Positions 9,476 through 41,597 of a stretch of DNA of 64,000 nt are shown here, piece by piece (the first letter of the stretch is position 1; each line of letters opens with the position of its first letter). Source of the stretch: Elainellaceae cyanobacterium (GTDB lineage: Bacteria; Cyanobacteriota; Cyanobacteriia; CAZCXK01); assembly GCA_051117555.1 (NCBI GenBank), contig JBNPEG010000084.1, positions 1 through 64,000 on the forward strand, read 5' to 3'. The notes under the pieces were generated by a model. It was not told the DNA's origin, did not search any database, and worked only from the letters and a program-made list of their open reading frames with translations. Both the position numbers and the translations under genes were made by a program.

Positions 9476-10225
9476 TTATTCAATTCTGACTTCTCCAATA
9501 AGCGGAGCATCTGGAATCTGAGTCAGTCCTACATCTGACCGTTGTAAAGCTGTTTGCCAATCCATTTTGAGAGCAGTATTATTAGGGGTCATGAGCCGAA
9601 GATTGGCTAACTGGGCGATCGCGTCATACCAAATTCCTTGTAGCAGTGCTTGGCTAGTACGGGGAGATGCATTACTTAGCTGATCATTCAGATCAGAAGA
9701 CATCGCTAACCGTTGCACCCAACCATTCACGTCTACGTAGGTTGGCTCATCAGGGTCACAATACAGCTCAAAATACCAGCGATAGAATTGGCCCATATTT
9801 AGTTCAGGAACAGACTCTGGAAGAGTAAAGCTTACATATCCCGGTACCTGTTCAGGTAGAGTGAAGTCGATGGGGGCAATCGCTTCACTTCCAGTTTCAT
9901 CGTACAACACAAATTTTCCTACTGGGATCTGCTCCTGAGAATAGGGTACATAAAACCAAAAAGTTGGGTGTCCTAACAAGGTATTTCCTACATTAGATTG
10001 AGGCATTAATGCGGTTAGCGGATAGGCAACGGATGGACAATCTCCACGTGCGTCAGTAGCACTTTGCTCTCCCGGACGACTTTCTGAACCTTGTCGGTCA
10101 GATTTGGCGTATATCAAGTGTAATGATTTATGTGAGTTTGCAAGGGCTAGGGTTGAAATCATCGAGAGCGATATGATCAATCCAAAAAACAGTATTGGCT
10201 TCGTTTTCTTCATCAAACTATTCAT
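9476..10225 (-). CDS. DUF928 family secreted protein
   Basis: Signal peptide; ARGDC...LTALMP...HPTFWFYVPY...YRWYF...GIWYDAI. Confidence 0.88.
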   Translation of the reverse strand: MNSLMKKTKPILFFGLIISLSMISTLALANSHKSLHLIYAKSDRQGSESRPGEQSATDARGDCPSVAYPLTALMPQSNVGNTLLGHPTFWFYVPYSQEQIPVGKFVLYDETGSEAIAPIDFTLPEQVPGYVSFTLPESVPELNMGQFYRWYFELYCDPDEPTYVDVNGWVQRLAMSSDLNDQLSNASPRTSQALLQGIWYDAIAQLANLRLMTPNNTALKMDWQTALQRSDVGLTQIPDAPLIGEVRIE

Positions 10226-10261
10226 TCTTGCTACCTCAGTAAAAATATTCGGTCGATTTAA

Positions 10262-12604
10262 TCAGCGAAGTTTAAACTTCGCGTATAGCAAGGCATTCAC
10301 TGCTGTTATAGCTAAAGCAAGCATTGCAGGAATCAGTGGCACCCACCATCCCTGAATAAAAAGTAGAAAGCAAACTCCAACTAATGCTCCCCATACGAGT
10401 AGAATTGTAAATCCAACTTTCCATCGAGACTGTGGATACAATACGATTGCACTGCCTATGACACTCCAGGAAGTAATCCAAAGTATTTCAGTCCAGGACG
10501 ACCACCATTTAATCAAAGGACGTTGATCAAACACAGCACTTAGAATTTGGCTAATCATGTGGGCTTGGACAATGACCCCTGACATCTTATCAGTACCCCG
10601 GTCGCTGCTGTAAGGAGTAAGATGCACATCAATGTTGGGACTGACTACACCAATTAATACAATGCGATCGCGCACTAATTCCGAAAGTTGCACATCTAAA
10701 GATTGGCTCAACAGTTCCCGAAGACTAATTTGATCTGGGTTAGACCCACGGTAGTTGATCAAGATTTGCTGCCCTGACACCTCTCGTTGAGGAAGCTGAT
10801 ACCCTCCAGCATCGGGTTCTAACCGTCTGAATGCCATACTTCCAATTTGAAGTCTGCCGTCAGGTTGCCAGTAGAGAGAGTAATCCGTAGTAGATTGAAT
10901 GTATTGCTGAATAGTTCGCATATTAAAGGATTGATTGGTCGGACAAATCTCGTCGGCTGGCATCTTGAGAATTTGACGGCGAATCACGCCATCCGGATCA
11001 AGAGGAACATTTGTAAAACCAATATTTGTAATTGGCAACGGGGGCGGTTCAACTCCTGGCAACTGGTCTGAAACGCGAATTCGACAGATGCCCACAAAAT
11101 TTCCCATCTGTTGCAAGTAGACTGCTAAATCTGGGGCATACGCAAAGTCGTGAATAATGTCAGATGCGACCACTGCAGGTTGATATGGTTCTAGCTTTTT
11201 TAAGAGTTGCAGGAGAGCTTCATCCGACAGTGAGCCAATCATCTTCATTCCCTGAATTTGTTGATATTGAATATCTTCCTCCTCCACTGAAACAATCAAA
11301 ATGCGTGAATCAATTCCTTCAATATTGGGGCGCAAACGCATAAATTGGTCAAAGGCTTGCAGTTCCCAGTGTTGCAAAATGCCAAGCGATCGCATCCCAA
11401 TGACTAAACTTGTCACAAGTGCACTGCCAACAAGTATCATTCGCAGCCGTTGCCACCGCATAGATTCAACACGAGGGGATGTCTGATAAACAGTTCTCAG
11501 TCGATTAGCTGTTTCAACGCCCTGCAACTGAAACCAACGAGGTGGAATAGAATCCGGATTTTGATAGATAACTGGAAGCCAACTGGCACACGGAAATAAA
11601 CCCTCTAATCCTTGAAGGCGTTCCCGTGCGTTTCGGGTTGCGAGATAGAAGGAATTTCCAGTCGCAAATGCCTCTAGAAAATATTTCAAAAATTTCTGAG
11701 CGACTTGATCAGGCACGGGTTCTCGCATCACAATTAACTGAGGAAGGCAAACTTGCTCTAGTTCATAGGCCAGTCCCATGCCGTCACAGGAATTAAAAAT
11801 TGCTAGTTGCAGCCCGCGCTCAACTGCTTGCCTAAGTCCATACTTCAATTCGTCAAGAGTTAGACTATCTTGAGCGTTGATATGAATGCGGCCAGCGTTA
11901 GTTTCGGTGTAGCTATGCCCCGCAAAAAATAGGATGTCCCATGATTGCTCCCATAATTGATCATTGATTTGCCACCGTTGGGGTTCAACTAGAAAGATGA
12001 CCTCAGCACCAGGCAGTGTTTCTAACAATCGACGGTCATCATCAATATTAATTCCAGTTGAATCGCCCAAAATCGCTAAAATCCTAACCGTATTTTGCGC
12101 TGATGCTGGAGTTCGCTGAATAGATTCAAAACTCAGAGAGCCAAAGGATACTTCTGCCTGATGATACCGTTCGATAAAATCCCATAGGTGCCACGGGAGT
12201 CGACAGACTCGCCGATCTTGAGTGCGAATCAGCACGCGAATTGGATCAGACAAATTTAAGACTTCTCGAAGCCGACGATCAATCGCCAAAAATTGCTTTG
12301 ACTCTAGCCAGGCAGATAGGCGATCGCGCAATTCATCGGCAGACTGACGAAAATCTTCGAGCTGATTAATCGACCCGTTGTAGATAATTTCTTGAGGCGT
12401 AATCCGTGTAACCGTGCCTAAGCGGCGATAGTTTTGCTGCCACTGGACCACACAAGTCGCTAACTCTACATTAGGAGGAAGATATCCAACCGTCTCGGTA
12501 TCTGGACGTTGACCCTCCGTACCCACTTCTAAGGAGACTCGGAAGCCTTGCTGCTCTAGATCTCCCTCTAACTTAAGAACCACTAACTTTCCGAGAGTTG
12601 ACAC
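10262..12604 (-). CDS. CHAT protease domain + TM + extracellular CHASE2 + 3 TM sensor
   Basis: FFAGHS and FNSCDG dyad, MREPVPD, LPVIYQN; TM; AFDQFMRLRP...DPDGVIRR...GVIVQAHMISQIL; three C-terminal TM segments. Confidence 0.92.
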   Translation of the reverse strand: MSTLGKLVVLKLEGDLEQQGFRVSLEVGTEGQRPDTETVGYLPPNVELATCVVQWQQNYRRLGTVTRITPQEIIYNGSINQLEDFRQSADELRDRLSAWLESKQFLAIDRRLREVLNLSDPIRVLIRTQDRRVCRLPWHLWDFIERYHQAEVSFGSLSFESIQRTPASAQNTVRILAILGDSTGINIDDDRRLLETLPGAEVIFLVEPQRWQINDQLWEQSWDILFFAGHSYTETNAGRIHINAQDSLTLDELKYGLRQAVERGLQLAIFNSCDGMGLAYELEQVCLPQLIVMREPVPDQVAQKFLKYFLEAFATGNSFYLATRNARERLQGLEGLFPCASWLPVIYQNPDSIPPRWFQLQGVETANRLRTVYQTSPRVESMRWQRLRMILVGSALVTSLVIGMRSLGILQHWELQAFDQFMRLRPNIEGIDSRILIVSVEEEDIQYQQIQGMKMIGSLSDEALLQLLKKLEPYQPAVVASDIIHDFAYAPDLAVYLQQMGNFVGICRIRVSDQLPGVEPPPLPITNIGFTNVPLDPDGVIRRQILKMPADEICPTNQSFNMRTIQQYIQSTTDYSLYWQPDGRLQIGSMAFRRLEPDAGGYQLPQREVSGQQILINYRGSNPDQISLRELLSQSLDVQLSELVRDRIVLIGVVSPNIDVHLTPYSSDRGTDKMSGVIVQAHMISQILSAVFDQRPLIKWWSSWTEILWITSWSVIGSAIVLYPQSRWKVGFTILLVWGALVGVCFLLFIQGWWVPLIPAMLALAITAVNALLYAKFKLR

Positions 12605-12624
12605 CTAAATGTCCTCATCATGCC

Positions 12625-13581
12625 TTATACCATAAATGTCTCGCTGATGATGATATCGCCTAACACCACCCTAATACTGAATTTTTCTCCTGTCTTTCCT
12701 CCAAATTTCAACTGAATCATTTCGGTATTGCGAGATTGTGCCTGCATGACAGGGATATCCGCTTCATCTAAGATAAGCACTTCTAACTCAGGCGGAAGTC
12801 GCGCGTGATGATTCACTGGGCACAATCGAACCCAAATATCCATTTCGGGATTTGGAGTCACCATCAGACCTACTAATAGCGCGATTTGTTCTCCCTGAGG
12901 AGCAGTTCTTAACTCGAGCAGTTTACCTCGACTGGCACTTAAACCTGCACTAGAAATTGGAACCAGTTGAATCAGGTCAGGACTGCGAAAGCTTAGCGCA
13001 GGCTGTTGAACCCTAAAGAGATCTTCGATTGATTGCCAACCGCTTTCAAAAGTATTTTGCAGCCATTGTTGAAGCTGGACAGGGACAGGAGACTGAGACG
13101 ATTGCTGAACTTGACTAAGGTAGTCAATTAAATCGTCGAGCGATCGCAACTGGTTAAGCGGTACTTCTGCCGTTGTTGAAGATGGCACAAAGCCCAGAAT
13201 TGCTGCTTCTTCTAAATCCGAATCAAATTTCACGGCAACATAGCCAATGCGATCAGACCTTGTTTCAGGTGGAATATAGCATATCTGGTCATCGGGCAAC
13301 ACAGGACGGCACTCTAGCTTTCCCACTCCTCTAATCATTAAATCAGCCGTATCCGACAAAACCTGACTAGCTAAGTTCCAACTGTTGCTAGCCTCCAAAT
13401 CGGTTTCAATACCCAGACACGTTAAGTAGAAATTCACAGCATACACTGCTAGCGTGTTGAGATAAACCCGTTTAGCATGTTGTAGATTGGGCTGTTGCTG
13501 GCGGAACTGCTCCGCAAGGCTGTGTGCTTTGAGGGTGAGTGGCACCATAATACTAAAATCATCATCGGTTGAGTTCATCAT
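12625..13581 (-). CDS. DUF1822 family protein (candidate anti-sigma)
   Basis: RVYLNTLAVYAVNFYL...GKLECRPV...DRIGYVAV...LQQWLQNTFESGWQ...FRS...GEKFSIRV. Confidence 0.88.
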   Translation of the reverse strand: MMNSTDDDFSIMVPLTLKAHSLAEQFRQQQPNLQHAKRVYLNTLAVYAVNFYLTCLGIETDLEASNSWNLASQVLSDTADLMIRGVGKLECRPVLPDDQICYIPPETRSDRIGYVAVKFDSDLEEAAILGFVPSSTTAEVPLNQLRSLDDLIDYLSQVQQSSQSPVPVQLQQWLQNTFESGWQSIEDLFRVQQPALSFRSPDLIQLVPISSAGLSASRGKLLELRTAPQGEQIALLVGLMVTPNPEMDIWVRLCPVNHHARLPPELEVLILDEADIPVMQAQSRNTEMIQLKFGGKTGEKFSIRVVLGDIIISETFMV

Positions 13582-13610
13582 GTCTTTAGCTCATATGGAT
13601 AGAGGGAGAC

Positions 13611-14270
13611 CTACGACAAATATTCTTTAAATTTAGGTTTGAATTGATCAATACGACGTTGATAGAAACTACTCAGGGTGTTGATGTTGATCCTTAGCTC
13701 GGACGAAATCTCATGCCATGTGTAGCCCGATAGCTTTCGCATGGCAATCACTTGAAACGTAGCATTCGGCCAACCGACCACATGACAGCCTGCAAACAGT
13801 CCTTCTGGGTCTTCTTCCAAACATTGTAGAATTTGTTGCGTAGGTAGCGGAACAAGGTGAGGATTTACTTCATTTGGATTATGGCGATCGAGTTCATCAA
13901 TAGACAGCCGACGAACTAGTTTGGGATCAAGCCCTTTAGGTAGAGTTGGCATAAAATCTCGACTGGCTTCGATAAAAAATCGCCGAGTCATTAGAAAATT
14001 TATCCATTGCAATACTTCTCCTCGCGCTGGTGAATAGTCATCGATGCGATCGCATACAAATAAAAACAGCCGCTGCTGTGCCTCTGCATAGATCTCACCA
14101 TAAAAGGTTTGAAATTGACCTAATCGAGGTTTAGCAAGCTTCCCGGATCTTTGAATTAGTCGCAAGAGCTTGGTGAGCGATCGCTGTCGCTCTCGACTTT
14201 TGGGTGGATGCTGCTGGGCATCCATCGCGAGTTGTTTGAGTTGACCTTCTAGATCATTAGATTCGTTCAT
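13611..14270 (-). CDS. Sigma-70/ECF-like RNA polymerase sigma factor
   Basis: Helical region-2-like segment (YAEAQQRLFLFVCDRIDDYSPARG...WINF) and C-terminal HTH (YTWHEISSELRININTLSSFYQR); first gene of the module. Confidence 0.8.
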   Translation of the reverse strand: MNESNDLEGQLKQLAMDAQQHPPKSRERQRSLTKLLRLIQRSGKLAKPRLGQFQTFYGEIYAEAQQRLFLFVCDRIDDYSPARGEVLQWINFLMTRRFFIEASRDFMPTLPKGLDPKLVRRLSIDELDRHNPNEVNPHLVPLPTQQILQCLEEDPEGLFAGCHVVGWPNATFQVIAMRKLSGYTWHEISSELRININTLSSFYQRRIDQFKPKFKEYLS

Positions 14271-14323
14271 GTGGGGGATTCTCTATACCTCATCGATGAG
14301 GAAGGACATCAACCTCTATATAG

Positions 14324-14354
14324 TTCTCAGATTAAGCAAATCACTTTTGTGCAG
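14324..14354 (-). promoter_or_regulatory. Motif B (CTGCACAAAA-N15-TGAGAA) upstream of sigma-like gene 14270
   Basis: Reverse complement reads CTGCACAAAA gtgatttgcttaatc TGAGAA; same spacing as 3 other copies. Confidence 0.7.
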
Positions 14355-14412
14355 AGTTCCGCAATTTTTTAAATCAATCAGCTTTGTAACGATATGTAAA
14401 ATAAGCCATTCA

Positions 14413-14443
14413 CTGCACAAAACTCTCGATTCTCTGATGAGAA
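14413..14443 (+). promoter_or_regulatory. Motif B upstream of the RTX gene
   Basis: CTGCACAAAA ctctcgattctctga TGAGAA, 26 nt before ATG 14470. Confidence 0.7.
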
Positions 14444-14469
14444 CACCTTGGTAGACCTATGAGAAACCT

Positions 14470-15798: not shown

Positions 15799-16011
15799 AA
15801 CTATCAAAGCTGCCCTGGAAGTAGCGCAAATGCTGAAACATCCTACCGATCGACAGCAAATAGCTTTCAATTGTGCCAAAAGGCTGGCAAATCCTAGGAA
15901 AGACTAGTGCGTAGTTTCTTAGACCTCTTAAAGAGTTTCCGAAATAGAAATCTAAACGAGTCTGTTGAGTCAATTCTTAAAAAATTCATGTCATTCTACA
16001 GGAGCTAAACC

Positions 16012-16485: not shown

Positions 16486-16624
16486 ATTGCTTGGCTTCGA
16501 CAAAGCTAGAAATAATTTATCAAAATCAGGAGAAAATTAACGGAAGCGTATCTTGGCTTGGCGATGGTCGATCCTTCAGCGCATCACCAATATAAACGCT
16601 AAGCCATATAAATTTTTCCGCTAC

Positions 16625-16655
16625 CTGCACAAAACGTGTTGATTATGACTGAGAC
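16625..16655 (+). promoter_or_regulatory. Motif B upstream of PPC gene 16892
   Basis: CTGCACAAAA cgtgttgattatgac TGAGAC. Confidence 0.65.
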
Positions 16656-20901: not shown

Positions 20902-20980
20902 TGGTTTTGAGTAATGCTTCTCTGAAACATGAATCGTAAAGTAAATATCGAATTAAAGATTACCAGGATGGTATATAAAT

Positions 20981-25834: not shown

Positions 25835-25865
25835 CTGCACAAAACTTGCCGCTAAAATCTGAGAC
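25835..25865 (+). promoter_or_regulatory. Motif B upstream of nuclease-like gene 26044
   Basis: CTGCACAAAA cttgccgctaaaatc TGAGAC. Confidence 0.65.
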
Positions 25866-25956: not shown

Positions 25957-25984
25957 TTCCATACCGCTACCAGATTCAGAGATA
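25957..25984 (+). promoter_or_regulatory. Motif A (TTCCATA-N15-GAGATA) upstream of 26044
   Basis: TTCCATA ccgctaccagattca GAGATA. Confidence 0.75.
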
Positions 25985-26043
25985 GATGAAGTTGAGGGGG
26001 GACTTCATTATCAAATGATCGATGTACTTATTTTATATTCAAG

Positions 26044-27681: not shown

Positions 27682-27706
27682 TGAGATAGAAAGTTAGGTC
27701 GTAGTA

Positions 27707-27749
27707 AAAAGCCAAGAGGATCAAGCATCGCTTAATCCTCTTGGCTTTT
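27707..27749. terminator. Intrinsic, probably bidirectional, terminator hairpin
   Basis: aaaagccaagagga...tcctcttggctttt between convergent genes. Confidence 0.75.
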
Positions 27750-28054
27750 GCACAGGGCTACTTGTTTAGATTGATTGCGTTAGCTAGATAGCTCAGGCTA
27801 GGACGCCTATTTGTGTATTGTCAATTTGAGGAATGATCCTCAGGGGGAGAAATAGCCCCACAGTCGTGGCTTCGCTAAAGCTCAGCAATGTGTTATTTAG
27901 TCCACAGAACGAAGGCGATCGCTCTGTGGACTAATCCCTGTTAGCGCATTGGGTTACCAAAGTTCTGAGTCCAATAGTGTCCCCATTGCTGGTCGCCAAT
28001 AGGAAGGATACAAAACATCCTCTCTTCTTTGAAATACGTAATGACTCAGCAAGA

Positions 28055-30229: not shown

Positions 30230-30264
30230 GGTTGTTACTCCTCAAGGGGTGAGCTATTTACACT

Positions 30265-30292
30265 TATCTCTGAGGTAAAGAGCGATATGGAA
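30265..30292 (-). promoter_or_regulatory. Motif A upstream of the S8 peptidase
   Basis: Reverse complement: TTCCATA tcgctctttacctca GAGATA. Confidence 0.75.
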
Positions 30293-30331
30293 AATAGCTT
30301 GTAGGCGATCGCTCTTAATCAATTCATGCTG

Positions 30332-33300: not shown

Positions 33301-33589
33301 CAATTGCCCCTAGCCCTGTTACGCTTCGTCCTTCTCCACGGCGATCGCCAATTTCTCGATAAATCTCGAACGCCCTTTGAAGCATCGATAGCGCTTGCTG
33401 ATAGTCGCCTCGCTGCCAAAACTGAACTGACCTATCAAACAGTGCATCGGCTTCTGCTTGGCGATCGCCCTCTCCCACATCTTGAGCTAACGCCGTTGAT
33501 TCCTTAAATGACAGAGAGAAGGGCGATGGAACAATGAGCGATAGCAGAACCGTAGACGTCAACAAACCAAGCAAGCGGTGAGAGCGCAT
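30332..33589 (-). CDS. Secreted TPR + CHAT protease
   Basis: Signal peptide; about 12 40-aa TPRs (TLNNIG...QALDYYQQAL); HIATHG and SACETA; HPYYWAPFILIGNGL. Confidence 0.95.
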   Translation of the reverse strand: MRSHRLLGLLTSTVLLSLIVPSPFSLSFKESTALAQDVGEGDRQAEADALFDRSVQFWQRGDYQQALSMLQRAFEIYREIGDRRGEGRSVTGLGAIAYSVGQYSQALDYYQQALEINVETGDRSREVTILTGIGLVYSNLGDYQQALDYYQQALAIRTEVGDRAGEGATLNNIGEMYFKLGQYEQAFDYFQQALAIHAEGGNSPGERFRQRRGEGTTLNNIGLVYIHLGQYSQALDYYQQALIIRTEVGDRAGEGTTLNNIGGVYANLGQYSQALDYYQQALAIKTDIGDRRGEGTTLNNIGGVYVNLGQYFQALDYYQQALAIKTDIGDRFGEGVTLNNIGLVYDNLGRYSQALDYYQQALAIRTEVGDRFGEGVTLNNIGSVYDILGQYSQALDHYQQALAIKTDIGDRAGEGATLNNIGGVYDSLGQYSQALDYYQQALAITIEIGDRAGEGTTLNNTGLVYRNLGQYQQALEYLQQALAIRTEVGDQSGKGITLNNIGHLFDTQDQPELAIVFLKQSVNTREQIRGGIQQLDQALQQSYTDTVSHTYRRLADLLVSQGRLLEALQVIELLKLQEIRDYTRSGVASREVDQFPEEETTAAAYYDLIQLGSAILTCESDPECGQQELTRLKQQRTERNTAYNDAVRTLETAMSQRRAADDQAPDPQDLIYEDVQKIVEAQPGTVLIYPIVLDDRLLIMWATQGGLAEPIYVEGVSEEQINQAVFRFHELMAQCELGRCSPVSEIQAVSQQLYDWLMPAQLREQLEQNDIQNLVFALDRSVRYIPMAALFDGSQYLIENYTVSTVTAAWLSHADTPLPQDPNAISVMALGLSEAVPDVDPADDVFGFRGLRYVPDELDVIVQRGDRTDEVGIYSGQELLNSQFDKNVFYSLAGHNILHIATHGVYMPTNLYSSYLMLGTKEDWRISQIQDIGAEFRSLSMVVLSACETALGGRSSNQAAVSELDGREISGIAQTFIDAGVDTVVASLWQVNDASTSQLMQSFYHNLAENTADNPGTIAQALRDAQLSLLRGEETGDRSDDRGIAIEPNPEELDTDEGQSTAQSSQTRFSHPYYWAPFILIGNGL

Positions 33590-33625
33590 AAATTCTCCAG
33601 CAGGATAATGACCGACACTACTATA

Positions 33626-33653
33626 TAGCTCTGAGGCTGGAGAGGGTATGGAA
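33626..33653 (-). promoter_or_regulatory. Motif A variant upstream of CHAT gene 33589
   Basis: Reverse complement: TTCCATA ccctctccagcctca GAGCTA. Confidence 0.7.
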
Positions 33654-33701
33654 TTTAAGAGAAAATTTTAGGTTGTGAATGAGAAACAACCATAAACCGT
33701 C

Positions 33702-33845
33702 CGTAGGAGCGTACGGCATACGCCCAGTGCAAGGTATTGGTTTTATGCAATGGATTGAGGGGCGATCGCCAGTGGATTCGTTTATTTCAATGGTTGGGTT
33801 GATGAAAACGTGTTGCGCTGGGCGAGTTGTAATTCGCCCCTACAC
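33702..33845. repeat. Inverted pair of GTAG-type REP-like palindromes
   Basis: gtaggagcgtacggcatacgccc ... gggcgagttgtaattcgcccctac; related copies near 34638, 41667 and 55031. Confidence 0.6.
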
Positions 33846-33886
33846 GGATGGTGTTGATGGGTGGGGGCGATCGCCAACGTCTGGAA

Positions 33887-34462
33887 CTACCGCAATTGCA
33901 GAACTTGAGCTGGTGACAGATTCAAATCTCCGAATTGGGGAGAAATAATTGCCCTGTCTTCCCGATGTACCGTTTCTTCGTAAATCCCTTCTACCCACTC
34001 CAACACCACTATTTGCTGATCTATCGGGTCAACAATCCAGTATTCTGCAATATTCCGTGCTGCATACTCGGTACGCTTGTAGCGATAGTCTCGATTTTGC
34101 TGTCCTGGGCTCACAATCTCAACAACCAACACAGGAGGAGGCATATCAGACAAGATAGTTGATTGGCTAGCCCCTTCTAAAGCAGTTGCCAATTCCTCTG
34201 AGATTACCATCAAATCGGGGCGTCTAACAGTTGTGCGCGCCCCACTCACAACAATTTCGGTGCCAATCCTCACTCGATATGAAGGGATTCCCTGGTTCAA
34301 GAAAAAAGCGAATAGTAAAGACGCAATCCGAATATTTAATTCGCTTTCGGGCGGCATTTTGACCAGCGTTCCATTCACTAATTCATGCGGGGTTTCTGTG
34401 CCATCGTCATAACTGAGATACTCTTCGAGCGTCATGGGTTGCGATTTGAGGGCCATGATCAC
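33887..34462 (-). CDS. Uma2 (DUF820) family endonuclease
   Basis: MTLEEYL...ELVNG...RRPDLMV...LVVEIVSPG...DYRYKRTEYA...EYWIVDP. Confidence 0.93.
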   Translation of the reverse strand: MIMALKSQPMTLEEYLSYDDGTETPHELVNGTLVKMPPESELNIRIASLLFAFFLNQGIPSYRVRIGTEIVVSGARTTVRRPDLMVISEELATALEGASQSTILSDMPPPVLVVEIVSPGQQNRDYRYKRTEYAARNIAEYWIVDPIDQQIVVLEWVEGIYEETVHREDRAIISPQFGDLNLSPAQVLQLR

Positions 34463-34705
34463 GCTATCTCCTGCATCAAGGGATGGCTCTATTATTACAG
34501 ATGGCTAAAGCGCGATCGCCCGCTCGTAGAACTGATTCGGGTTGCTTTTTGTACCAGGTCAAGGCAGGACAACCGCTGATATCAATTGATCCCGGTGCGA
34601 TCGCCCTTTTAACCCATTGCGTGTGAATTTAATACGTTGTACGGGTGTACGGCATACGCCTCTCTTCTATGCATCTGAACCAATATTCTAGCCATTATCC
34701 AGGGC

Positions 34706-34773
34706 AGATCCCCGGCTTCTTAATCAGGGGTCTCCAATACCAGTCAGAGACTTACCACAGAAGCCGGGGATCT
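34706..34773. repeat. Small element with 15-bp inverted repeats
   Basis: AGATCCCCGGCTTCT ... AGAAGCCGGGGATCT; right half recurs near 55099. Confidence 0.7.
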
Positions 34774-34823
34774 AAACCGCCATATTAGGTCGCTGATGAA
34801 CAATCCCTAAAGTTTTCTTCAAA

Positions 34824-34851
34824 TTCCATACCATCTCCTGTGCCAGAGATA
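34824..34851 (+). promoter_or_regulatory. Motif A upstream of the CHAT pseudogene
   Basis: TTCCATA ccatctcctgtgcca GAGATA. Confidence 0.72.
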
Positions 34852-34887
34852 TACACTAATGTCGGTCATTATCCTGCTGGAGAATTT

Positions 34888-35375
34888 ATGCGCTCTCACC
34901 GCTTGCTTGGCTTGTTGATGTTTACAGTTTTGCTATTGCTTAATGTGCCGCTGCGGATTATTGGGTTAGTGGGGGAGTTAAGGGCTGTAGCGCAAGATGT
35001 GGGCAAGGGCGATCGCCCTTGCCCCCTCTGACACCGATGATGGCCTACTCACCTCTACCAAAATCTTTTGGCTTAGACTTAAACGCTGAATTCGTCATCC
35101 TCAGTGCCTATGACACTGGGCGAGGGCCAATTACAGGGGATGGCGTGATTGGGCTAGCGCGATCGCTGATTACCGCAGGCGTTCCCAGCGTTATGGTTTC
35201 ATTGTGGTCGGTTCCCGACGCGCCCACCGACGAACTGATGACCAAATTCTATCGCCAGTTGCAGCAAAACCCCGACCAATCTCAAGCACTGCGTCAGGCC
35301 ATGCTGATTACGATTCAAACTCATCCCCATCCTCGCAATTGGGCAGCATTCACGCTAATTGGGGAATCTGAATAA
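34888..35375 (+). pseudogene. Internally deleted TPR-CHAT gene: signal peptide joined at a HIP1 site to the CHAT C-terminus
   Basis: MRSHRLLGLL...AQDVGKGDR, then in another frame AIALAPSDTDDGLLT...LSAYDTG...NWAAFTLIG; catalytic Cys->Tyr; extra frameshift near 35066. Confidence 0.85.
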
Positions 35376-35389
35376 TCTAAACCTTTAAT

Positions 35390-35417
35390 TTCCATAGCAT
35401 TGCTCCGCATAGAGATA
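35390..35417 (+). promoter_or_regulatory. Motif A upstream of sigma-like gene 35428
   Basis: TTCCATA gcattgctccgcata GAGATA. Confidence 0.75.
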
Positions 35418-35427
35418 AGCGATTGTA

Positions 35428-36936
35428 GTGGAGGATGCCCCTTCCACGCCTATTCGTACCGTTACTAATCCAGAGACTTCCATCATGGATGAACCATCCA
35501 AATACTGGACATTCGTTCGACTAACAGCTGCTGGAAAACCTCAGGTTATTGAAGTTGAGCCTGCAAAAGGCTTTTTCAGGCGAGAGTTCCCTCATTTGGT
35601 AGGACAAACTGATATTGCTCATAACATGATTCAGCTTCGGTTGCATCAGCTTTACGACACTACGCCTATCAGAGGAGATGAAATGTCTGAAAGTTGGTTG
35701 GCTGAGTGCTGTCTTCGCTGTTTTATCTCAAATAGAATTGAGCAAGTCTGTTCCCAAATCCAAAAACAGTTTGGTAAGCAGCATGGATTCACCCAATATG
35801 ATCTGTTACCTTACGTGCTCAATGATGGTGATTTGACTACTACAGGAAGAAGACGTTCTTCAAATTCTCAAAACTCCTCAGACCATCCGTCATTAGCTAC
35901 AGAAATTTTACAAACGTTTACCCCGAAGCGAGGAAATTTAGGCAGTTGGGTAACTCGTTTGGTTCGTCATCATAAAGGTTTGAATAATGTTTTGCTTGAA
36001 CACGGCGTTTATTTGTTGAGCGATTGGGCAATTCTTAACGACACTCGGATTCCTCAGCTAGAGCGTATCTTGACCGAATTTTGCCCGCTTCCCAGACATG
36101 AGGTCTTTCAAGCGTCCGTATTGCTAGAGAGCTACCATGCAATCTATCGCCGAGATCGCATGAAACACCGTCAGGCAAATCGTCGATGCTTACCCCCATC
36201 CAACGAGCAGCTTTGCCGAATGAAACAATGGATGCAAAACGAATTCTCAATGGAGCGATCGCCCGATCAAATTGTGGCAGGGCTTCAAGATTTGGCTCAG
36301 CATCTCCGAGACTACCGGATCTTTGTCCGAAGTAATTATCTACCTGTTCAATCTATGGATGATCCCGATCACCAGACTGCAATTGAGTCTATCCAAATGA
36401 CGGATGAAAACGATGAAGAAGACGAGATCAATGAGTTTCTTCACTTCTATCGTCAGCAGTTTGATGAGGGCTTAAACCAGGCTATAGCCAAGGTTATTCA
36501 ACAACGGATTGAGTTCCTGAAGCGTAAGCGAAACCCGAAACACCATGTTTATCTCACGGGCTTACAGCTATTTCATTGCCAAGGTCTCTCTATGAGTGCC
36601 ATCGCCCCTCACATTGGTCTACAACGCCAAGATCAAGTAACATACTTGCTCAAACTCAAATCACTCCGAGCAGATGTTCGACATACCTTGCTCACGATTC
36701 TGCGCGATCGCATTCTCAAAAAGGCCCAAGACTACATTGATCCTGAGCGCCTTCATCATTTAGATCAGCAGATTGACGATGCTTTAGAATCGCATGCTAG
36801 TGCTGTAATCGAAGAAGCTCAAGATGAGGCAAGCACAGCCCGGAATCAACCCCTTCGCAGCGTGTTTGCTCGTCAATTATGTCGCCATCTTGACAAATTG
36901 ATGATTGATTCCCCACCTTCCCACCCAAACCCTTAA
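35428..36936 (+). CDS. Large sigma-factor-like DNA-binding protein (likely start ATG 35485)
   Basis: CLRCFIS...EILQTFTPKRGNLGSWVTRLV (region-2-like); LFHCQGLSMSAIAPHIGLQRQDQVTYLL (HTH); heads a DUF1822-CHASE2 operon. Confidence 0.65.
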   Translation: MEDAPSTPIRTVTNPETSIMDEPSKYWTFVRLTAAGKPQVIEVEPAKGFFRREFPHLVGQTDIAHNMIQLRLHQLYDTTPIRGDEMSESWLAECCLRCFISNRIEQVCSQIQKQFGKQHGFTQYDLLPYVLNDGDLTTTGRRRSSNSQNSSDHPSLATEILQTFTPKRGNLGSWVTRLVRHHKGLNNVLLEHGVYLLSDWAILNDTRIPQLERILTEFCPLPRHEVFQASVLLESYHAIYRRDRMKHRQANRRCLPPSNEQLCRMKQWMQNEFSMERSPDQIVAGLQDLAQHLRDYRIFVRSNYLPVQSMDDPDHQTAIESIQMTDENDEEDEINEFLHFYRQQFDEGLNQAIAKVIQQRIEFLKRKRNPKHHVYLTGLQLFHCQGLSMSAIAPHIGLQRQDQVTYLLKLKSLRADVRHTLLTILRDRILKKAQDYIDPERLHHLDQQIDDALESHASAVIEEAQDEASTARNQPLRSVFARQLCRHLDKLMIDSPPSHPNP

Positions 36937-36951
36937 CCACAATAATGACGA

Positions 36952-38286
36952 TTGCCTCACCGGAGATTTACGATGATGACTAATTCCCTATCTATTACCA
37001 CTATGTTTGATGCCGATTCAGCCTCGCCCAATACTATTTTTCTATCCAACAGCCAGATTGACCAGGCGATCGCACTGAGTGAACAGGTACGAGAACCCGA
37101 GCAGTGGCAAGTCTATCGGCAGGCGATCGCTTTAACTGCATTCAAACAATGGCTCGACGAAAGAGATTCCCAACTATTCGTTCAAGATGATCGCTCGACC
37201 CTTCAGTTTCCAGAATATGCCAGCTTAATTAATGCTGTTTGCAATATTCAAATTGGTCACTATCGAATCTGTCTCATTCCAACAGGAAGTGTCGCAGATA
37301 CTGTAGTATTTTTGCCACGAGCAACCGTTGAAATCTCAGACTTCGTTCCTCATCTATACGTGCTCATTGAGGTGTCAGATGAGTATGAACACGTCCAAAT
37401 TAAAGGGTGTCTGCGTCGCGATTCGCTTTTCTATCATCTAAAGTCTGTTCATTTGCCTACCAATGCTGACTGGACCTATTCAATTCCTCTAGACTGGTTT
37501 AGTCTTGACCCTGAGCGCATTCTTCTGTATCTTCGCTGCTTAGAACCCAATGCAATCCAAAGCCAAACAGTCGCTCCTCACGCACACGCTTCAGTTGCTC
37601 AGGTGAAAGCCGATCTAACTCTATTGCGTCCTCGTATTCAATCCAGCGATCGCCCGCTTTGGCGACTTTTAATGTGGGAGCAAGCATCAACTATCCTCTG
37701 CAATCCTGAGCTATTGGATCAAGTCTATTCCAGAACCCAGACAGGTGCGCACGCGTTGCAGGATTTGAAACAACGAGCCATCAACGTAGGATTGTGGCTA
37801 CAAAATCAAGTAGATGAACTAGCACAGGAATGGATTTTACTCCCTCCGCCAGTACTTGAAACTGTAACCGCTCAAGCAATGCGATCGCCCGTCGAGCAGT
37901 TTGATGATGTCATTTCTGCCTTAACTCAGCAAGGCATGATGATTCCGTCTCACGCAAGAGGAGCCTATCAAGATCTGAAAGGAGCAAATGCGGCTCTTCG
38001 GCTGTATGCCGTCACGTGGAAATTGCCTGAGTTGTCTCATTCCGATGAATGGACTCTGCTGCTCATGCTAGGGGCACAACCTGGCGCCCAACTACCTGAA
38101 GGGGTTCGGCTTCAAGTTCACGACGAACATCACGTCCTAGATGAACAAGTTTTGACCACCTCTACTTCAGATGCCCATCTTTTTTCACGGGTGATTGGAG
38201 ATCTCAACGAGCAGTTTTCGGTCACAATTAAGTTGGCAAATGGGGAAGTGGTGACTCGTCAGCCCTTTGTATTTCACCTATCTTAA
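36952..38286 (+). CDS. DUF1822 family protein (likely start ATG 36973)
   Basis: WQVYRQAIALTAFKQWL...HLYVLIEV...INVGLWLQ...MRSP...EQFSVTI. Confidence 0.8.
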   Translation: MPHRRFTMMTNSLSITTMFDADSASPNTIFLSNSQIDQAIALSEQVREPEQWQVYRQAIALTAFKQWLDERDSQLFVQDDRSTLQFPEYASLINAVCNIQIGHYRICLIPTGSVADTVVFLPRATVEISDFVPHLYVLIEVSDEYEHVQIKGCLRRDSLFYHLKSVHLPTNADWTYSIPLDWFSLDPERILLYLRCLEPNAIQSQTVAPHAHASVAQVKADLTLLRPRIQSSDRPLWRLLMWEQASTILCNPELLDQVYSRTQTGAHALQDLKQRAINVGLWLQNQVDELAQEWILLPPPVLETVTAQAMRSPVEQFDDVISALTQQGMMIPSHARGAYQDLKGANAALRLYAVTWKLPELSHSDEWTLLLMLGAQPGAQLPEGVRLQVHDEHHVLDEQVLTTSTSDAHLFSRVIGDLNEQFSVTIKLANGEVVTRQPFVFHLS

Positions 38287-38294
38287 AAGCCATC

Positions 38295-40754
38295 ATGCCT
38301 GAACAGTCTATATTTCAACTCAACGTTCATCAGGTCGACCAGCAATGTTTGTTTGAGTTGTCCTGGAGCCAGGGACGACGGCTTACAGCTCTGCTTAGTT
38401 ATCCTCAGTCATTGATAGAACTCTATCAGCAGTGGCGACAGTTTTATCTCAGTTTCTATCGCACCGTTCAGATCCCGTTGGTTTTATCTCCACACGTGGA
38501 AAACGGACTGCGAGGCAGACGTGCAGAAAGCGGCAGCATTATCTCAACGCCGAAAGACTGGCAGGCTAAACTTGTTGAAGTCGAAGCAAAGTTTTTATAC
38601 GCATTCCACCATTGGTTGCGCAGCGCCGAACTCTACGAGATCCGTGCCAAACTCGCTGAGGCAAGTCGTCTAAATAGAGATGGGCAACCCGTTGATCTGT
38701 TTCTCACCTGCACGCCTATTCAACTCTCTCGACTACCGTGGGAAACGTGGGAAATAGGCACTGAATTTGCCTCAATGGGCGGAATCCGCATTGCCCGTTC
38801 TCCTGCCAATATCAGAGTAGAAGCAAATCCTAGAAATTCACTTCCGCGTCGCCGAACACGAATTCTGGCGATTTTGGGAGACGACACTGGCCTAAATTTC
38901 AAAGTCGACCGGGATGCGGTGCAGTCTCTTTCGCGCTTTGCAGATATAGAGTTTGTTGGCTGGCAACCGGGCAAATCCATTGACGAGCTAAAAACTGAAA
39001 TCACCCAGGCGATCGCTCATCCGCTGGGTTGGGATATCCTATTCTTTGCTGGACACAGTAACGAAACTACTATGACCGGCGGAGAACTGGCGATCGCTCC
39101 CCAAACCCACATCGCCCTGCGTGACATTGCTCCCCAACTGGCGATCGCCAAAGAACGGGGTTTGCAGTTTGCTATCTTCAATTCCTGCAACGGCATCAAT
39201 ATTGCCGAAACGCTCATTGACTTGGGACTCAGTCAAGTGGCTGTGATGCGAGAACCCATTCACAATCGAGTTGCACAGGAGTTCCTAATCCGGTTCTTGC
39301 AAAGTCTTGCTGACCACAAAGATGTTCATGAGTCATTGATTACAGCCAGTCAGTTTCTAAAGACGACTAAGAACCTGACCTATCCGTCTGCGTATTTGGC
39401 ACCCTCTCTATTTCGCCATCCCGACTCGACGCTGTTTCGTGTTCAACCGATAGGTTGGAAGCAACAATTCAGGCGACTTATGCCCAAGCGCTATGAGGCG
39501 ATCGCTCTAGCAGTTTTGATGATTCTGGGTAGTTATGGTTCTGTTCAATATCGACTGTTAGAAGGCAGAGTTCTGGCTCAGGCTCGCTACCGTCAATGGA
39601 CACACCGAGTTCAGTCTGATAAACCTTCCCCCTTACTTCTCGTTCGAGTGGATGGAGAGTCCCTTGATCGAGAAAATATCTTGGAACGGAACCCAATTCC
39701 ACCTGATTATCTGGCTAGTTTGATAACACAATTATCGGCTCGTGACGTAAGTGTAATCGGAATTGATTATTTGATCGACCGCCAACAAGAAGGCAGTGAT
39801 TTGATGGCGAAGGCTGTAAGGGAGGTAGCAGGACAAGGAACGATATTTGTATTTGCAAGTATCCAAGATAATCATGCTCGGTGGATGAAAACCACGCCAG
39901 AGATTGCCGATCCAGTCTATAGCATTCATGGGGATGCAGCCCGTGCTTGGGGAAATGACTATCGGATGCCACTCTTAATTGAAGGACGAGAACATCTCCT
40001 CCCGTTTGCACTATTGATGGTGTTGCTCCAGCAAAATTCTGGAACTTCCTCTATATCAAATGAACCTGTTGGCTTAGCCATTTTTGATAACCCCGGTCAG
40101 CTTACAGAATTGTTTTCGCCTCGCCTCTATTGGCAGTCGATTTCACGCCTGAGTTACCGTTTCAAACAATATTGGTTGCATCCAATTACCGATTTTTCGC
40201 TCCCACCTCATCAGGTTTATCAATCAATACCAGCCTGGAAGCTGCTAGAACAGCCAAACGCGCCTGAATTGAAGCACTTACCCCAGCAAGCGGTGATGAT
40301 CGCAGCAGGAGGCTATGAGGAAGCAGGATTAATTCCGGGTGATGATAATGAAAACTTTGAAGCTCCAGACGCGATGAGCTACTGGTATCGACAGGAGAAT
40401 CCTCATAACCCTTATCGTGAGATGACTGGGGGCGAACAGCATGCCTATCTCTTCCATCATTTTTTGAATCGTCGATTTGTTATCCCTGTCCCCAATCTGT
40501 GGATGATATTACTTGCAGCGATCGCTGGAAAGGTCACAGTTTTGCTACTCGCGCGACAGCGTTCAACGAATACCAAGGCATACCAGCGTTATGAAGGGTT
40601 GATTGGTTCAGGACTTTTAATTAGCACCGCAATATATGCGCTGATGAGCCTTGAGTTATATGTATCGACACTGGCGATCGCATTTCCTATTGTTCTTCCC
40701 ATCGCAGCCTATTGGGGCTATGTATTGCCATCGTTATTTCGAAATAAACCATGA
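38295..40754 (+). CDS. CHAT + TM + CHASE2 + 3 TM sensor protease
   Basis: ILAILGDDTG, FFAGHS, FNSCNG, MREPIHN; TM; CHASE2-like (IGIDYLID); C-terminal TM segments. Confidence 0.9.
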   Translation: MPEQSIFQLNVHQVDQQCLFELSWSQGRRLTALLSYPQSLIELYQQWRQFYLSFYRTVQIPLVLSPHVENGLRGRRAESGSIISTPKDWQAKLVEVEAKFLYAFHHWLRSAELYEIRAKLAEASRLNRDGQPVDLFLTCTPIQLSRLPWETWEIGTEFASMGGIRIARSPANIRVEANPRNSLPRRRTRILAILGDDTGLNFKVDRDAVQSLSRFADIEFVGWQPGKSIDELKTEITQAIAHPLGWDILFFAGHSNETTMTGGELAIAPQTHIALRDIAPQLAIAKERGLQFAIFNSCNGINIAETLIDLGLSQVAVMREPIHNRVAQEFLIRFLQSLADHKDVHESLITASQFLKTTKNLTYPSAYLAPSLFRHPDSTLFRVQPIGWKQQFRRLMPKRYEAIALAVLMILGSYGSVQYRLLEGRVLAQARYRQWTHRVQSDKPSPLLLVRVDGESLDRENILERNPIPPDYLASLITQLSARDVSVIGIDYLIDRQQEGSDLMAKAVREVAGQGTIFVFASIQDNHARWMKTTPEIADPVYSIHGDAARAWGNDYRMPLLIEGREHLLPFALLMVLLQQNSGTSSISNEPVGLAIFDNPGQLTELFSPRLYWQSISRLSYRFKQYWLHPITDFSLPPHQVYQSIPAWKLLEQPNAPELKHLPQQAVMIAAGGYEEAGLIPGDDNENFEAPDAMSYWYRQENPHNPYREMTGGEQHAYLFHHFLNRRFVIPVPNLWMILLAAIAGKVTVLLLARQRSTNTKAYQRYEGLIGSGLLISTAIYALMSLELYVSTLAIAFPIVLPIAAYWGYVLPSLFRNKP

Positions 40755-40763
40755 GGAAAAGTC

Positions 40764-41597
40764 ATGTTCGGTATCTACTCAGCAATCCGTATATTTCCAA
40801 GACTTTGCTTACTTCTTTGTGCTTCCCTCCCATTTGCGATATGGGAAGTTGGAATCCTTAATATACGTGCGGCACATGCAATATTTTTTCAAGCACAAAA
40901 CTCATCTCCAAATCCATCACCGCCGCCGCCAATTCAGGGAATTTCTAGTCTTCGTACTCTTTGGAATACTATATTCAGCAGTCCACCTCCACCTCCCCCC
41001 CAACAAGGAATTTCAAGAGGACGTTATTTTTGCTTGATTGCCCCATATTCATTTGAAGAAGAAGTATGGAGCGATCGCCCAACGTTAGTATGGCAAGGTT
41101 CGGCGAGCAGCGTAGAACTCTATCAACAAGGCGGTTCAGAACCCATTTGGACATATCCCCTATCTGAATCGGATCAAATCCCTGGACTAGATGGTGCCCA
41201 GACAGAAGAATTTGATGAACCCGTCTATCAAGTTACCTATGATGGCGAACCACTTGAACCCGGACAAGCTTATGTATGGAGGGTGATTCAACCGTTCGCT
41301 CCTCGTCCGATTTCCTTCCAGATAATGACCACTGAAGAGCAAGAGAAAATTACGGATGATTTGACTGCTTTAGAATCTCAGCTTGAAGCCGAAGACACAG
41401 ATGAAACTCTCGCCATTCAAAAAGCGGACTACTTTGCAGATCAACAACTCTGGTCAGACTTTTGGCAACAAATTCTCGCAGTTGAATCTCCATCCGATGA
41501 ATTAAAAACTGTTTTGGATGAAACCATTGCAGAATTGTGCCCTCCGCCACCAGACCCTGATGCCAATTCGAGAGAATTCAGGGGTTCTGTGCGTTAA
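40764..41597 (+). CDS. DUF928-like secreted protein
   Basis: Signal peptide, Pro-rich linker, SRGRYFCLIAP...RPTLVW...LEPGQAYVW...QLWSDFW; same operon position as DUF928 9476. Confidence 0.65.
   Translation: MFGIYSAIRIFPRLCLLLCASLPFAIWEVGILNIRAAHAIFFQAQNSSPNPSPPPPIQGISSLRTLWNTIFSSPPPPPPQQGISRGRYFCLIAPYSFEEEVWSDRPTLVWQGSASSVELYQQGGSEPIWTYPLSESDQIPGLDGAQTEEFDEPVYQVTYDGEPLEPGQAYVWRVIQPFAPRPISFQIMTTEEQEKITDDLTALESQLEAEDTDETLAIQKADYFADQQLWSDFWQQILAVESPSDELKTVLDETIAELCPPPPDPDANSREFRGSVR

Follow-up and report, generated by a model that had tools for sequence, protein, structure and literature searches.

Among the described systems, the closest to the genes considered here was delineated computationally by Kaur et al. 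(2021, eLife; PMC8195603), whose passages on EACC2-caspase proteins report that their genes adjoin those of extracytoplasmic function (ECF)-like sigma factors and of DUF1822 proteins. These proteases are described there as a constant N-terminal EACC2 alpha+beta region plus caspase, combined with a variable C-terminal sensor that includes CHASE2 with transmembrane helices, and the systems are placed among apoptosis- and immunity-like networks (PMC8195603). The present work deals with two divergent versions, A and B, of a four-gene module, coding for a sigma-like protein, a DUF1822 protein, a CHAT-CHASE2 protease and a DUF928 protein, in 64,000 nucleotides of DNA from an Elainellaceae cyanobacterium (GCA_051117555.1, contig JBNPEG010000084.1, positions 1 to 64,000; hereafter, the window). 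Both modules contain a caspase dyad, a CHASE2 sensor with transmembrane helices, an adjacent ECF-type sigma gene and an adjacent DUF1822 gene, and they belong to the neighbourhood catalogued by Kaur et al. (PMC8195603). A preliminary description of the window had put them forward as a new candidate system, a claim that did not hold, since the three-gene core was already published computationally in those passages (PMC8195603).

A second point of comparison is formed by PatU3, HetZ and HetF of Anabaena sp. PCC 7120, the last being the founding CHAT protease. The protease HetF cleaves PatU3 between R117 and S118, flanked by Y116 and P119, and mutation of R117 abolishes cleavage; the 2022 passages that report this model PatU3 as sequestering HetZ (PMC9457339). 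In July 2026, HetZ was identified by cryo-EM and transcription assays as an ECF-type sigma factor with three insertions, and the passages on its partner report that PatU3 inhibits HetZ, cross-links to it and is likely an anti-sigma factor (PMC13342950); HetF is mentioned 0 times in that paper. Taken together, the cleavage of PatU3 by HetF and the inhibition of the sigma factor HetZ by PatU3 provide an experimental precedent for a CHAT protease that cuts an anti-sigma factor. The analogy that the preliminary description had drawn with these three proteins is thus now stronger, HetZ being an ECF-type sigma and PatU3 a likely anti-sigma.

In the type III-E CRISPR system (Craspase), the CHAT protease Csx29 cuts Csx30 and releases CASP-sigma, and in the RseA/DegS/RseP/sigmaE pathway a signal from outside leads to anti-sigma proteolysis and to the release of an ECF sigma, with autoregulation of the operon. 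To our knowledge, the only studied axis composed of a CHAT protease, an anti-sigma and a sigma factor is the Anabaena heterocyst switch. We know of no ligand for CHASE2, a widespread bacterial sensor domain, and of no function assigned to DUF1822 or DUF928, both of them large cyanobacterial families.

The proposal examined here is that each module is a one-step trans-membrane signalling unit ending in a dedicated sigma factor. At rest, the soluble DUF1822 protein would clamp the sigma2 and sigma4 domains with its N-terminal domain, in the fashion of an anti-sigma factor; the exported DUF928 protein would act with the outside CHASE2 domain as ligand or co-sensor, and perception of the signal would turn on the cytoplasmic CHAT domain of the same receptor. 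The active protease would then cut DUF1822 after an invariant linker arginine (hydrophobic-Arg|Ser, by analogy with the Y-R117|S118 site of PatU3), separating the sigma-binding domain from the C-terminal beta-sandwich, and the sigma factor would become free, possibly once the fragment is degraded or through detachment from the receptor, and transcribe from its own promoter type. These promoters would be motif A, driving the module A operon and three secreted-protein genes, and motif B, driving the module B sigma gene together with exported TPR-CHAT proteases and peptidases. The arrangement of genes from which the proposal starts was confirmed; the interpretation is plausible, has a precedent and is partly supported, the proteolytic switch itself being hypothetical, and we give the mechanism as a whole an even chance of being correct. 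The two modules are laid out as follows:

13611..14270, minus strand: module A sigma-like gene, 219 aa, no Pfam match above cut-off.
12625..13581, minus strand: module A DUF1822 gene, 318 aa (PF08852, 3e-71).
10262..12604, minus strand: module A CHAT+CHASE2 gene, 780 aa (CHASE2, PF05226, 2e-59; CHAT, PF12770, 4e-12).
9476..10225, minus strand: module A DUF928 gene, 249 aa (PF06051, 1e-46).
35428..36936, plus strand: module B long sigma-like open reading frame (ORF), 502 aa, opening at GTG 35428.
36952..38286, plus strand: module B DUF1822 gene, 444 aa (PF08852, 6e-39).
38295..40754, plus strand: module B CHAT+CHASE2 gene, 819 aa (CHASE2, PF05226, 3e-13; CHAT, PF12770, 3e-7).
40764..41597, plus strand: module B divergent DUF928 gene, 277 aa, no Pfam match of its own.

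That the same four-gene order occurs twice, in divergent versions, had been stated in the preliminary description and is borne out by Pfam, by profiles and by a fold match. The intergenic gaps inside each module are 9-36 nt, the likely true start of the module B sigma-like gene is ATG 35485 (35485..36936, giving 483 aa), and the whole genome contains three A-type modules and one B-type module. By pairwise BLAST, only the CHAT parts of A and B are alike (33% identity, E 9e-36), and no likeness was obtained for the sigma, DUF1822 and DUF928 pairs; Pfam assigns both DUF1822-A and DUF1822-B to DUF1822. All four A/B gene pairs appear to be homologous, three of them detectably only via profiles or bridging proteins. 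The gene-neighbourhood survey suggested in the preliminary description found that the order recurs: in 21 loci picked from the best full-length B-sigma matches, the sigma gene is followed by DUF1822 in 18, by CHAT-CHASE2 in 17 and by a recognisable fourth gene in nine, and TPR-CHAT or two-partner-secretion (TPS) genes often adjoin. All three long ECF sigma paralogues of one Nostocaceae genome (G020) are followed by DUF1822, and six further Nostocaceae DUF1822 genes have a sigma-like gene before them (5/6) and a CHAT gene after them (4/6). These recurrent neighbourhoods indicate that the gene order is a conserved unit with at least three sigma subtypes. A locus search of genome contigs with DUF1822-B returned only one locus.

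Judged from its predicted structure, sigma-A is a very divergent ECF-type sigma factor. Its relatives are named sigma-70 family by NCBI, and 19 of 41 match Sigma70_r4_2 at E<=1, below threshold (best 8.5e-5). The AlphaFold model (pLDDT 84) has two helical domains, at residues 3-106 and 143-218, which correspond to sigma2 and sigma4 domains joined by a linker. All 50 of the 50 best VIA rows are sigma factors, among them sigmaE (1or7_B, Z 11.2 over 152 aligned residues) and the sigma2 domain of SigC (2o7g_A, Z 10.3, rmsd 2.1, 86/88 residues); with Foldseek by itself no match reached E<=1e-3, but sigma factors again fill the top rows. Neither sigma-A nor sigma-B alone reaches a Pfam sigma cut-off. 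Sigma-B is connected to the ECF family through a 390-aa protein of a Nostocaceae genome, found by the sigma-B profile at E 1.7e-6, which passes the NCBIfam sigma70-ECF model (TIGR02937, 7.1e-34, cut-off 42.9 bits) and matches Sigma70_r4 (1.8e-7). When the sigma-B family was aligned to this ECF sigma with hhalign, the probability was 97.6% (E 3.3e-12, 264 columns), over a span running from the end of region 2 across an insertion to region 4. In the ESM Atlas model of sigma-B residues 60-215, the nearest named families are sigma region 2 clusters (TM 0.47-0.53), and the Atlas language-model features link sigma-B to a HetZ-like cluster with a score of 0.82, which is a lead only. Profile searches of the PDB with the sigma-A and sigma-B families found no sigma factor, comparison of P0508 with PDB sequences found no sigma or HetZ chain, and hmmsearch with the sigma-B profile against all ORFs of the own genome gave nothing below E 0.26 except sigma-B itself. 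The long B-type sigma is present in 41 of 151 sampled genomes of the class (29 of 81 genera), and it is a second, previously unrecognised sigma subtype of the cassette.

The model of DUF1822-A consists of an alpha/beta domain (residues 8-161, pLDDT ~90), a disordered linker (163-213, pLDDT <50) and a beta-sandwich (215-318). It has no transmembrane helix and, contrary to the label 'TPR protein' used by Kaur et al., no TPR. Modelling of the complex between sigma and DUF1822, a check that the preliminary description had listed, predicted an interface with confidence for module A: DUF1822-A with sigma-A scored 0.86, 0.86 and 0.84, and three controls 0.51, 0.00 and 0.00. Such a score is reached by 116 of 157 solved complexes and by two of 215 mismatched pairs, counts that apply only approximately here, since the alignments supplied for both partners were our own. 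The runs share at least 86% of their contacts, and the pLDDT of the partners is at least 82. On the DUF1822 side, the predicted interface lies in residues 9-156 only; on the side of sigma-A, it includes 23-74 (sigma2-like helices), 119-148 (linker) and 176-218 (sigma4-like part). The DUF1822 N-domain is thus predicted to clamp the sigma factor, wrapping it, in the model, in the manner of anti-sigma domains on ECF sigma factors. In solved ECF sigma/anti-sigma complexes, such as 1or7, the inhibitory anti-sigma contacts both sigma2 and sigma4.

The fold of this domain also raises another reading, in which it would be an active PD-(D/E)xK nuclease effector controlled by the sigma-like protein or by the protease. 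Residues 33-164 of DUF1822-A, which have a restriction-endonuclease-like fold in the model, find their best structural matches in such nucleases: the homing endonuclease I-Ssp6803I (2ost_A) aligns over 115 residues with Z 9.9 and rmsd 3.1, followed by Hjc resolvases at Z 8.5 and 7.5 and by nuclease D212 at Z 7.6. In an alignment of 121 sequences (the two window proteins and the 119 best of 1,888 matches, 47-58% identical to A), the A-type residues D80, E90, C91 and R92 are kept in at least 93% of the 121. Z values of ~8-10, however, fall within what common arrangements yield, the motif has Arg instead of Lys at its last position, the four residues are not among the invariant columns of 20 B-type proteins, and the DUF1822 family is always paired with a sigma gene, all of which makes an active nuclease very improbable. 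As the B type does not preserve the D80/E90/R92 set conserved in the A type, we read the N-domain as a scaffold rather than as an enzyme.

The linker of DUF1822 contains the candidate cleavage site. The FRS and MRS motifs mentioned in the preliminary description were located at residues 198-200 of DUF1822-A and 310-312 of DUF1822-B:

12982..12990, minus strand: codons of F198-R199-S200, candidate CHAT cleavage site of DUF1822-A (from the alignment; linker pLDDT <50).
37879..37887, plus strand: codons of M310-R311-S312, linker Arg-Ser motif of DUF1822-B (from comparison of B-type linkers).

In the alignment, R199 is invariant (121/121), F198 is found in 107 sequences and S200 in 76, the residue after R199 being otherwise Asn (16), Gly (10) or Thr (7). 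R199 is the one conserved residue of a linker that is variable and gapped around it, and Pro at position +2 from this arginine occurs in only nine of the 121. Among B-type proteins, 17 of 20 have Arg-Ser in the linker, one has R-A and one R-Q. The two other DUF1822 paralogues of the own genome read GFRS and QWRS (2/2 Arg-Ser), and nine Nostocaceae linkers read FAFRS (three), QFRSD, GARS (two), GMRS, AWRS and SFRQ, so that eight of nine have Arg-Ser. The hydrophobic or aromatic residue followed by Arg-Ser in the linker, which is shared with the PatU3 site, is the strongest single argument that DUF1822 may be a substrate, an inference by analogy.

The protease that would make this cut has an intact catalytic dyad in both modules, H230/C273 in receptor A and H254/C298 in receptor B, and all of the 22 relatives in the alignment retain the GHS and FNSC motifs. 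As the preliminary description had it, the N-terminal CHAT domain with its GHS/NSC dyad precedes the first transmembrane helix and CHASE2 comes after it, in both receptors. In receptor A, CHAT is followed by a transmembrane helix at 389-407, by CHASE2 at 398-718 and by helices at 732-750 and 757-775; in receptor B, CHAT is followed by a helix at ~400-417, by CHASE2 at 406-744 and by three C-terminal transmembrane helices. Neither has a signal peptide, ~390 residues including CHAT precede the first helix, and CHASE2 sits between that helix and the two or three C-terminal ones: CHAT is cytoplasmic and CHASE2 is outside. Some 100-160 residues precede the CHAT core in both, with W47, Y51, G80, W107 and L108 (B numbering) near-invariant among the 22 relatives. 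The receptors are not HetF orthologues, since receptor A scores 22 bits against the HetF model NF045509 (cut-off 1200) and receptor B gives no match, and a separate HetF-like gene is found in the own genome on contig C139. Another contig of this genome (C227:61300-63685, minus strand) carries a CHAT-FHA protein (HetF-like, 166 bits) followed by a 217-aa protein starting MSGLVDAYFRSSP, in which there is another aromatic-Arg-Ser motif.

Both DUF928 proteins have, by hydropathy, a signal-like N-terminus and look exported. DUF928-A contains the motif D-A-R-G-D-C at 57-63 and DUF928-B the motif G-I-S-R-G-R-Y-F-C; a narrow pattern of this motif family, 'GxRxGGGSRGxCP', is matched by 50 of 114 DUF928 homologues, and the conserved Arg motif (GGSRGxC) is located after the signal peptide. 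The fourth gene of module B does not itself match PF06051; seven of 10 orthologues do at E<=1 (best 1.2e-6), and the profile of its family finds 1,287 representative clusters at E<=1e-3. Hhalign aligned 146 columns of this family and its A-type DUF928 counterpart (E 5.8e-9, probability 95.9%), which pairs the G-G-S-R-G-x-C motif, the 'HPTFWFYVP / DRPLFxWxG' strand and the C-terminal 'WYDAL / WSDAL' helix. DUF928 is present in 35 of 41 sampled genomes. In the 30 best DUF928 loci, with flanks limited to 1.5 kb, a CHASE2 gene adjoins in 12, with cyclase, GGDEF or CHAT as output; of the other loci, three show only a cyclase domain at the edge. A TPS gene follows in four of the 30, and a CHAT neighbour is seen in three. 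The partner of DUF928 is the sensor domain CHASE2 and not the protease, and the pairing is independent of the output domain, which fits a role as ligand or co-sensor without proving it.

Two further observations concern this family. The public gene call of DUF928-A is 213 aa long (86% of the ORF) and the signal-like N-terminus is found only in the 249-aa ORF, so the recorded start may be too far downstream. In four loci of other cyanobacteria (L076, L077, L080 and L095), genes for a CHASE2-cyclase, a DUF928 protein and a TPS-domain exoprotein stand in a row, which extends the link of DUF928 and CHASE2 with two-partner secretion beyond the CHAT modules.

At the output end, the preliminary description had assigned to the sigma factors two promoter-like motifs, of which the following copies lie in the window:

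14325..14353, minus strand: motif A pointing into the module A operon, with 54 nt between it and the sigma ATG, second box CTGAGA.
14415..14443, plus strand: motif A, 27 nt before the ATG of the divergent RTX-repeat gene 14470-15798.
16626..16654, plus strand: motif A, 238 nt upstream of the PPC-domain gene 16892-17596.
25836..25864, plus strand: motif A, 180 nt upstream of ORF 26044-27681.
35391..35417, plus strand: motif B before the module B sigma gene, candidate autoregulated promoter.
25958 (plus), 30291 (minus), 33652 (minus), 34825 (plus), 35391 (plus), 44968 (plus), 53443 (plus), 54133 (plus) and 55374 (plus), spanning 25958..55400: motif B copies of the window, each facing the next gene.

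Both motifs exist and are nearly exclusive to this island; release of the sigma factors onto them is the part of that assignment that stays conjectural. Motif A, CTGCACAAAA-N14-(C/A)TGAGA, has four copies in the 6.06-Mb genome, all in the window, intergenic and facing a gene. A loose pattern of motif B, TCCATA-N14-AGAGATA, matches 17 sites in the genome and none in its reversed sequence; this contig has 13 of these sites, of which nine are inside the window and four shortly past it. Apart from the copy before the sigma gene, those of the window precede three TPR-CHAT genes, a CHAT fragment, an S8 peptidase, a TPR gene and the ORFs at 26044 and 53512. In other genomes, usually with TGCATA as first box, 16 matches were found in 248 kb (0 in the reversed-sequence control), of which 15 are intergenic and 10 lie directly upstream of B-sigma orthologues. 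Autoregulated ECF sigma factors are preceded by bipartite promoter motifs of their own with fixed spacing.

The motifs might instead be sites of another regulator, or leftovers of duplicated upstream regions, since four copies of motif B (34825, 66779, 75625 and 33652) are in near-identical duplicated leaders, and motif B can also be read as a sigma-70-like promoter (TTtcCA-N17-gAgATa). At least nine motif B copies, however, differ in spacer and flanks while the boxes and their spacing are kept, all intergenic copies point towards a gene, usually with 34-60 nt left to the ORF, and B-sigma orthologues of ten other genomes are preceded by the motif with the -35 box changed to TGCATA, which is the pattern of autoregulated ECF sigma factors. 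We therefore hold a non-promoter origin to be improbable, and promoters used by the sigma factors of the modules to be the better reading.

Some loci near these motifs deserve mention by themselves. ORF 26044-27681 (545 aa, no Pfam match) has both motif A (25836-25864) and motif B (25958-25984) upstream, and both modules may control it. A 118-aa CHAT fragment (35019-35375), with only the C-terminal third of the domain and with motif B (34825-34851) 168 nt upstream, stands directly before module B and resembles a truncated TPR-CHAT gene. In two other genomes (L045:2011-3715 and L046:2090-3812), an A-type pair of sigma and DUF1822 genes comes directly after a B-type module, unaccompanied by a further protease gene, and in L046 a motif B-like element is found 62 nt before the A-type sigma gene, which suggests a sigma cascade.

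Several points weigh against the mechanism proposed above. The sigma-A and sigma-B families, compared by hhalign, give a probability of 7% over 21 columns, so that direct homology of this pair is not demonstrable; sigma-B itself has no Pfam or NCBIfam match, and none of 22 relatives matches a sigma Pfam model. The complex of sigma and DUF1822 was modelled for module A alone. The linker arginine is absent from one of the 20 B-type DUF1822 proteins, and where it is invariant it might serve in binding instead of marking a scissile bond. No CHASE2, cyclase or CHAT gene adjoins DUF928 in half of the loci sampled (15/30), and the duplicated leaders imply that part of the motif B count reflects paralogy. 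A search of the full-text literature found no experimental study of any member of the cassette. The predicted interface lies wholly in the N-domain, so that a cut at R199 would leave the sigma-binding domain intact and release would need a further step. Finally, the passages of Kaur et al. propose that the EACC2-caspase module is activated by autoproteolysis (PMC8195603).

The last two points also favour a different role for DUF1822, as an adaptor or co-factor that tethers the sigma factor to the receptor through its beta-sandwich or assists it on RNA polymerase, with the linker arginine as docking motif, while CHAT would activate itself by autoprocessing or cut another target: the model places only the N-domain on the sigma factor, so linker cleavage need not free it, and self-processing is what was proposed for these caspases. 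Against an adaptor, on the other hand, stand the predicted contacts of DUF1822 with both the sigma2-like and the sigma4-like parts, the pattern of inhibitory anti-sigma domains, the reported inhibition of sigma-HetZ by PatU3 (PMC13342950) and the match between the context of the DUF1822 arginine and the P2-P1-P1' positions of the HetF site (PMC9457339). We regard it as rather unlikely, yet as the foremost competitor of the anti-sigma reading. In the mechanism outlined by the preliminary description, the topology, the intact dyad, the exported appearance of DUF928 and its tie to CHASE2, the predicted interface of sigma with DUF1822 and the linker arginine have stood; cleavage of DUF1822, release of sigma by that cleavage and DUF928 as ligand are still steps that we infer.

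The modules are found in a cyanobacterial island with HIP1 GCGATCGC repeats that is rich in caspase-like proteases. Pfam finds in the window eight TPR-CHAT or CHAT genes, one CHAT fragment, a TPS exoprotein, three PPC-domain proteins, M48, S8 and trypsin-like peptidases and an RTX-repeat protein. Other features of the window are:

41802..44657, plus strand: exported TPR-CHAT protease, directly after module B.
6667-9369, 30332-33589 (minus strand), 45139-48987, 49992-53075, 55442-58732, 59802-62480 and 62464-end: other TPR-CHAT or CHAT genes, from Pfam.
55..396, minus strand: relic of a sigma gene, truncated; it duplicates residues 1-114 of the contig C21 sigma, which belongs to the third A-type module, with 90% identity.

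Signal-like N-termini were found in six of the seven full-length TPR-CHAT proteins of the window, the seventh being just under threshold, and the own genome has 23 TPR-CHAT-like ORFs. The relic at the start of the window, which the preliminary description had called a third sigma relic, is real; its open frame ends after 89 codons, adjoining a transposase fragment (DDE type, 926-1273), which suggests that a module copy at this place was destroyed by insertion or rearrangement. A nucleotidyltransferase/HepT-like (HepT/MNT) toxin-antitoxin pair is located at 49065-49768, between TPR-CHAT genes, and a Uma2-family putative endonuclease gene (33887-34462, minus strand) lies in the gap before module B, flanked by intergenic regions with repeated segments (e.g., 34706-34870 and 55099-55210).

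This company raises the question of what the modules are for, and one answer is that the island serves a multicellular cyanobacterium in conflict or in programmed cell death and not in ordinary environmental signalling: its receptor caspases would detect damage or invaders, and its sigma factors would bring about the expression of a battery of exported effectors (CHAT proteases, peptidases and two-partner-secretion proteins). The predicted regulons are consistent with it, composed as they are of exported TPR-CHAT, S8, M48 and trypsin-like peptidases and an RTX-repeat protein, and so are the toxin-antitoxin pair, the Uma2 nuclease, the number of TPR-CHAT-like ORFs and the grouping with apoptosis- and immunity-like networks in the passages of Kaur et al. 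(PMC8195603). The cassette stands, however, among chromosomal genes in many genomes, and the pairing of DUF928 with CHASE2 also serves cyclases and GGDEF domains, outputs that are usual in everyday signal transduction; we consider such a purpose unlikely. It concerns purpose and not mechanism, and it is compatible with the signalling unit proposed above.

A wider and speculative extension, which we think has only a small chance of being right, would make the modules the inner half of a self-feeding envelope protease relay, with the heterocyst HetF-PatU-HetZ switch as its specialised offshoot. Sigma-B would drive exported TPR-CHAT proteases (motif B stands before at least three in the window), and these, as Arg-specific enzymes, would process DUF928 at G-G-S-R|G-x-C. 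Processed DUF928 would be the CHASE2 ligand that turns CHAT on, and DUF1822 would be cut at hydrophobic-R|S, yielding more sigma. The outcome, in a filamentous bacterium, would be a caspase cascade that amplifies itself and possibly passes from cell to cell.

If the mechanism proposed for the modules is true, caspase-like cleavage of a soluble anti-sigma factor would be a general cyanobacterial route from the envelope to transcription, and its breadth may be gauged from the 1,888 cluster matches of DUF1822-like proteins and from the long sigma in 41 of 151 sampled genomes. The window would be a compact test bed, with two orthogonal modules, candidate sites (R199/R311), cysteines (C273/C298) and two motifs with small local regulons, and the pairing of DUF928 with CHASE2 provides a concrete protein candidate for the input of CHASE2.

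Compared with HetF, the receptors of the window share the design of a membrane protein with a cytoplasmic CHAT domain, a transmembrane segment and an outside domain, but the outside part of HetF carries TPR repeats in place of CHASE2, and the hetF gene lies apart from hetZ-patU. PatU3 and HetZ resemble the first two genes of the modules in that a gene for a soluble inhibitor lies beside a gene for an unusual ECF-type sigma to which the inhibitor binds (in the window modules, a prediction); the likeness so far observed between PatU3 and DUF1822 is the aromatic-R-S context of the site, and that between HetZ and sigma-B lies in insertions and a C-terminal extension. The sigma-HetZ promoter boxes (TCCGGA-N16-17-TGNA) differ from motifs A and B and agree with them only in general geometry and in the TCC..A of the motif B -35 box, and we make no claim of a shared promoter specificity. 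A degenerate DNA pattern of the PatU3 cleavage peptide gave 0 matches in 301 genomes of the phylum, half of which are non-photosynthetic relatives, so that this result is uninformative, and a patU5-like match of 71 aa (G425, E 0.05) was spurious on inspection.

With Craspase, the modules share a CHAT-family protease proposed to cut the protein that holds an ECF-like sigma, the difference being that activation in the window modules would come from a membrane sensor and not from target RNA; no Cas domain was found among the 38 window ORFs scanned with Pfam, and no CRISPR array search was made. The RseA-type pathway has in common with them an outside signal, anti-sigma proteolysis and an autoregulating ECF sigma. 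Unlike in that pathway, the candidate anti-sigma DUF1822 is devoid of a transmembrane helix, sensor and protease are one polypeptide, and the protease is a clan CD cysteine peptidase in the cytoplasm, the modules encoding no site-1 or site-2 protease. With respect to the EACC2-caspase systems, the core of caspase-CHASE2, ECF-like sigma and DUF1822 was already known computationally; the passages devoted to it do not name DUF1822 as substrate or anti-sigma and describe no long B-type sigma and no promoter motifs (PMC8195603). The additions made here are the subtype with a long sigma factor, a precise candidate for the cleavage site, a domain predicted to clamp the sigma factor and two local, predicted regulons of exported proteases.

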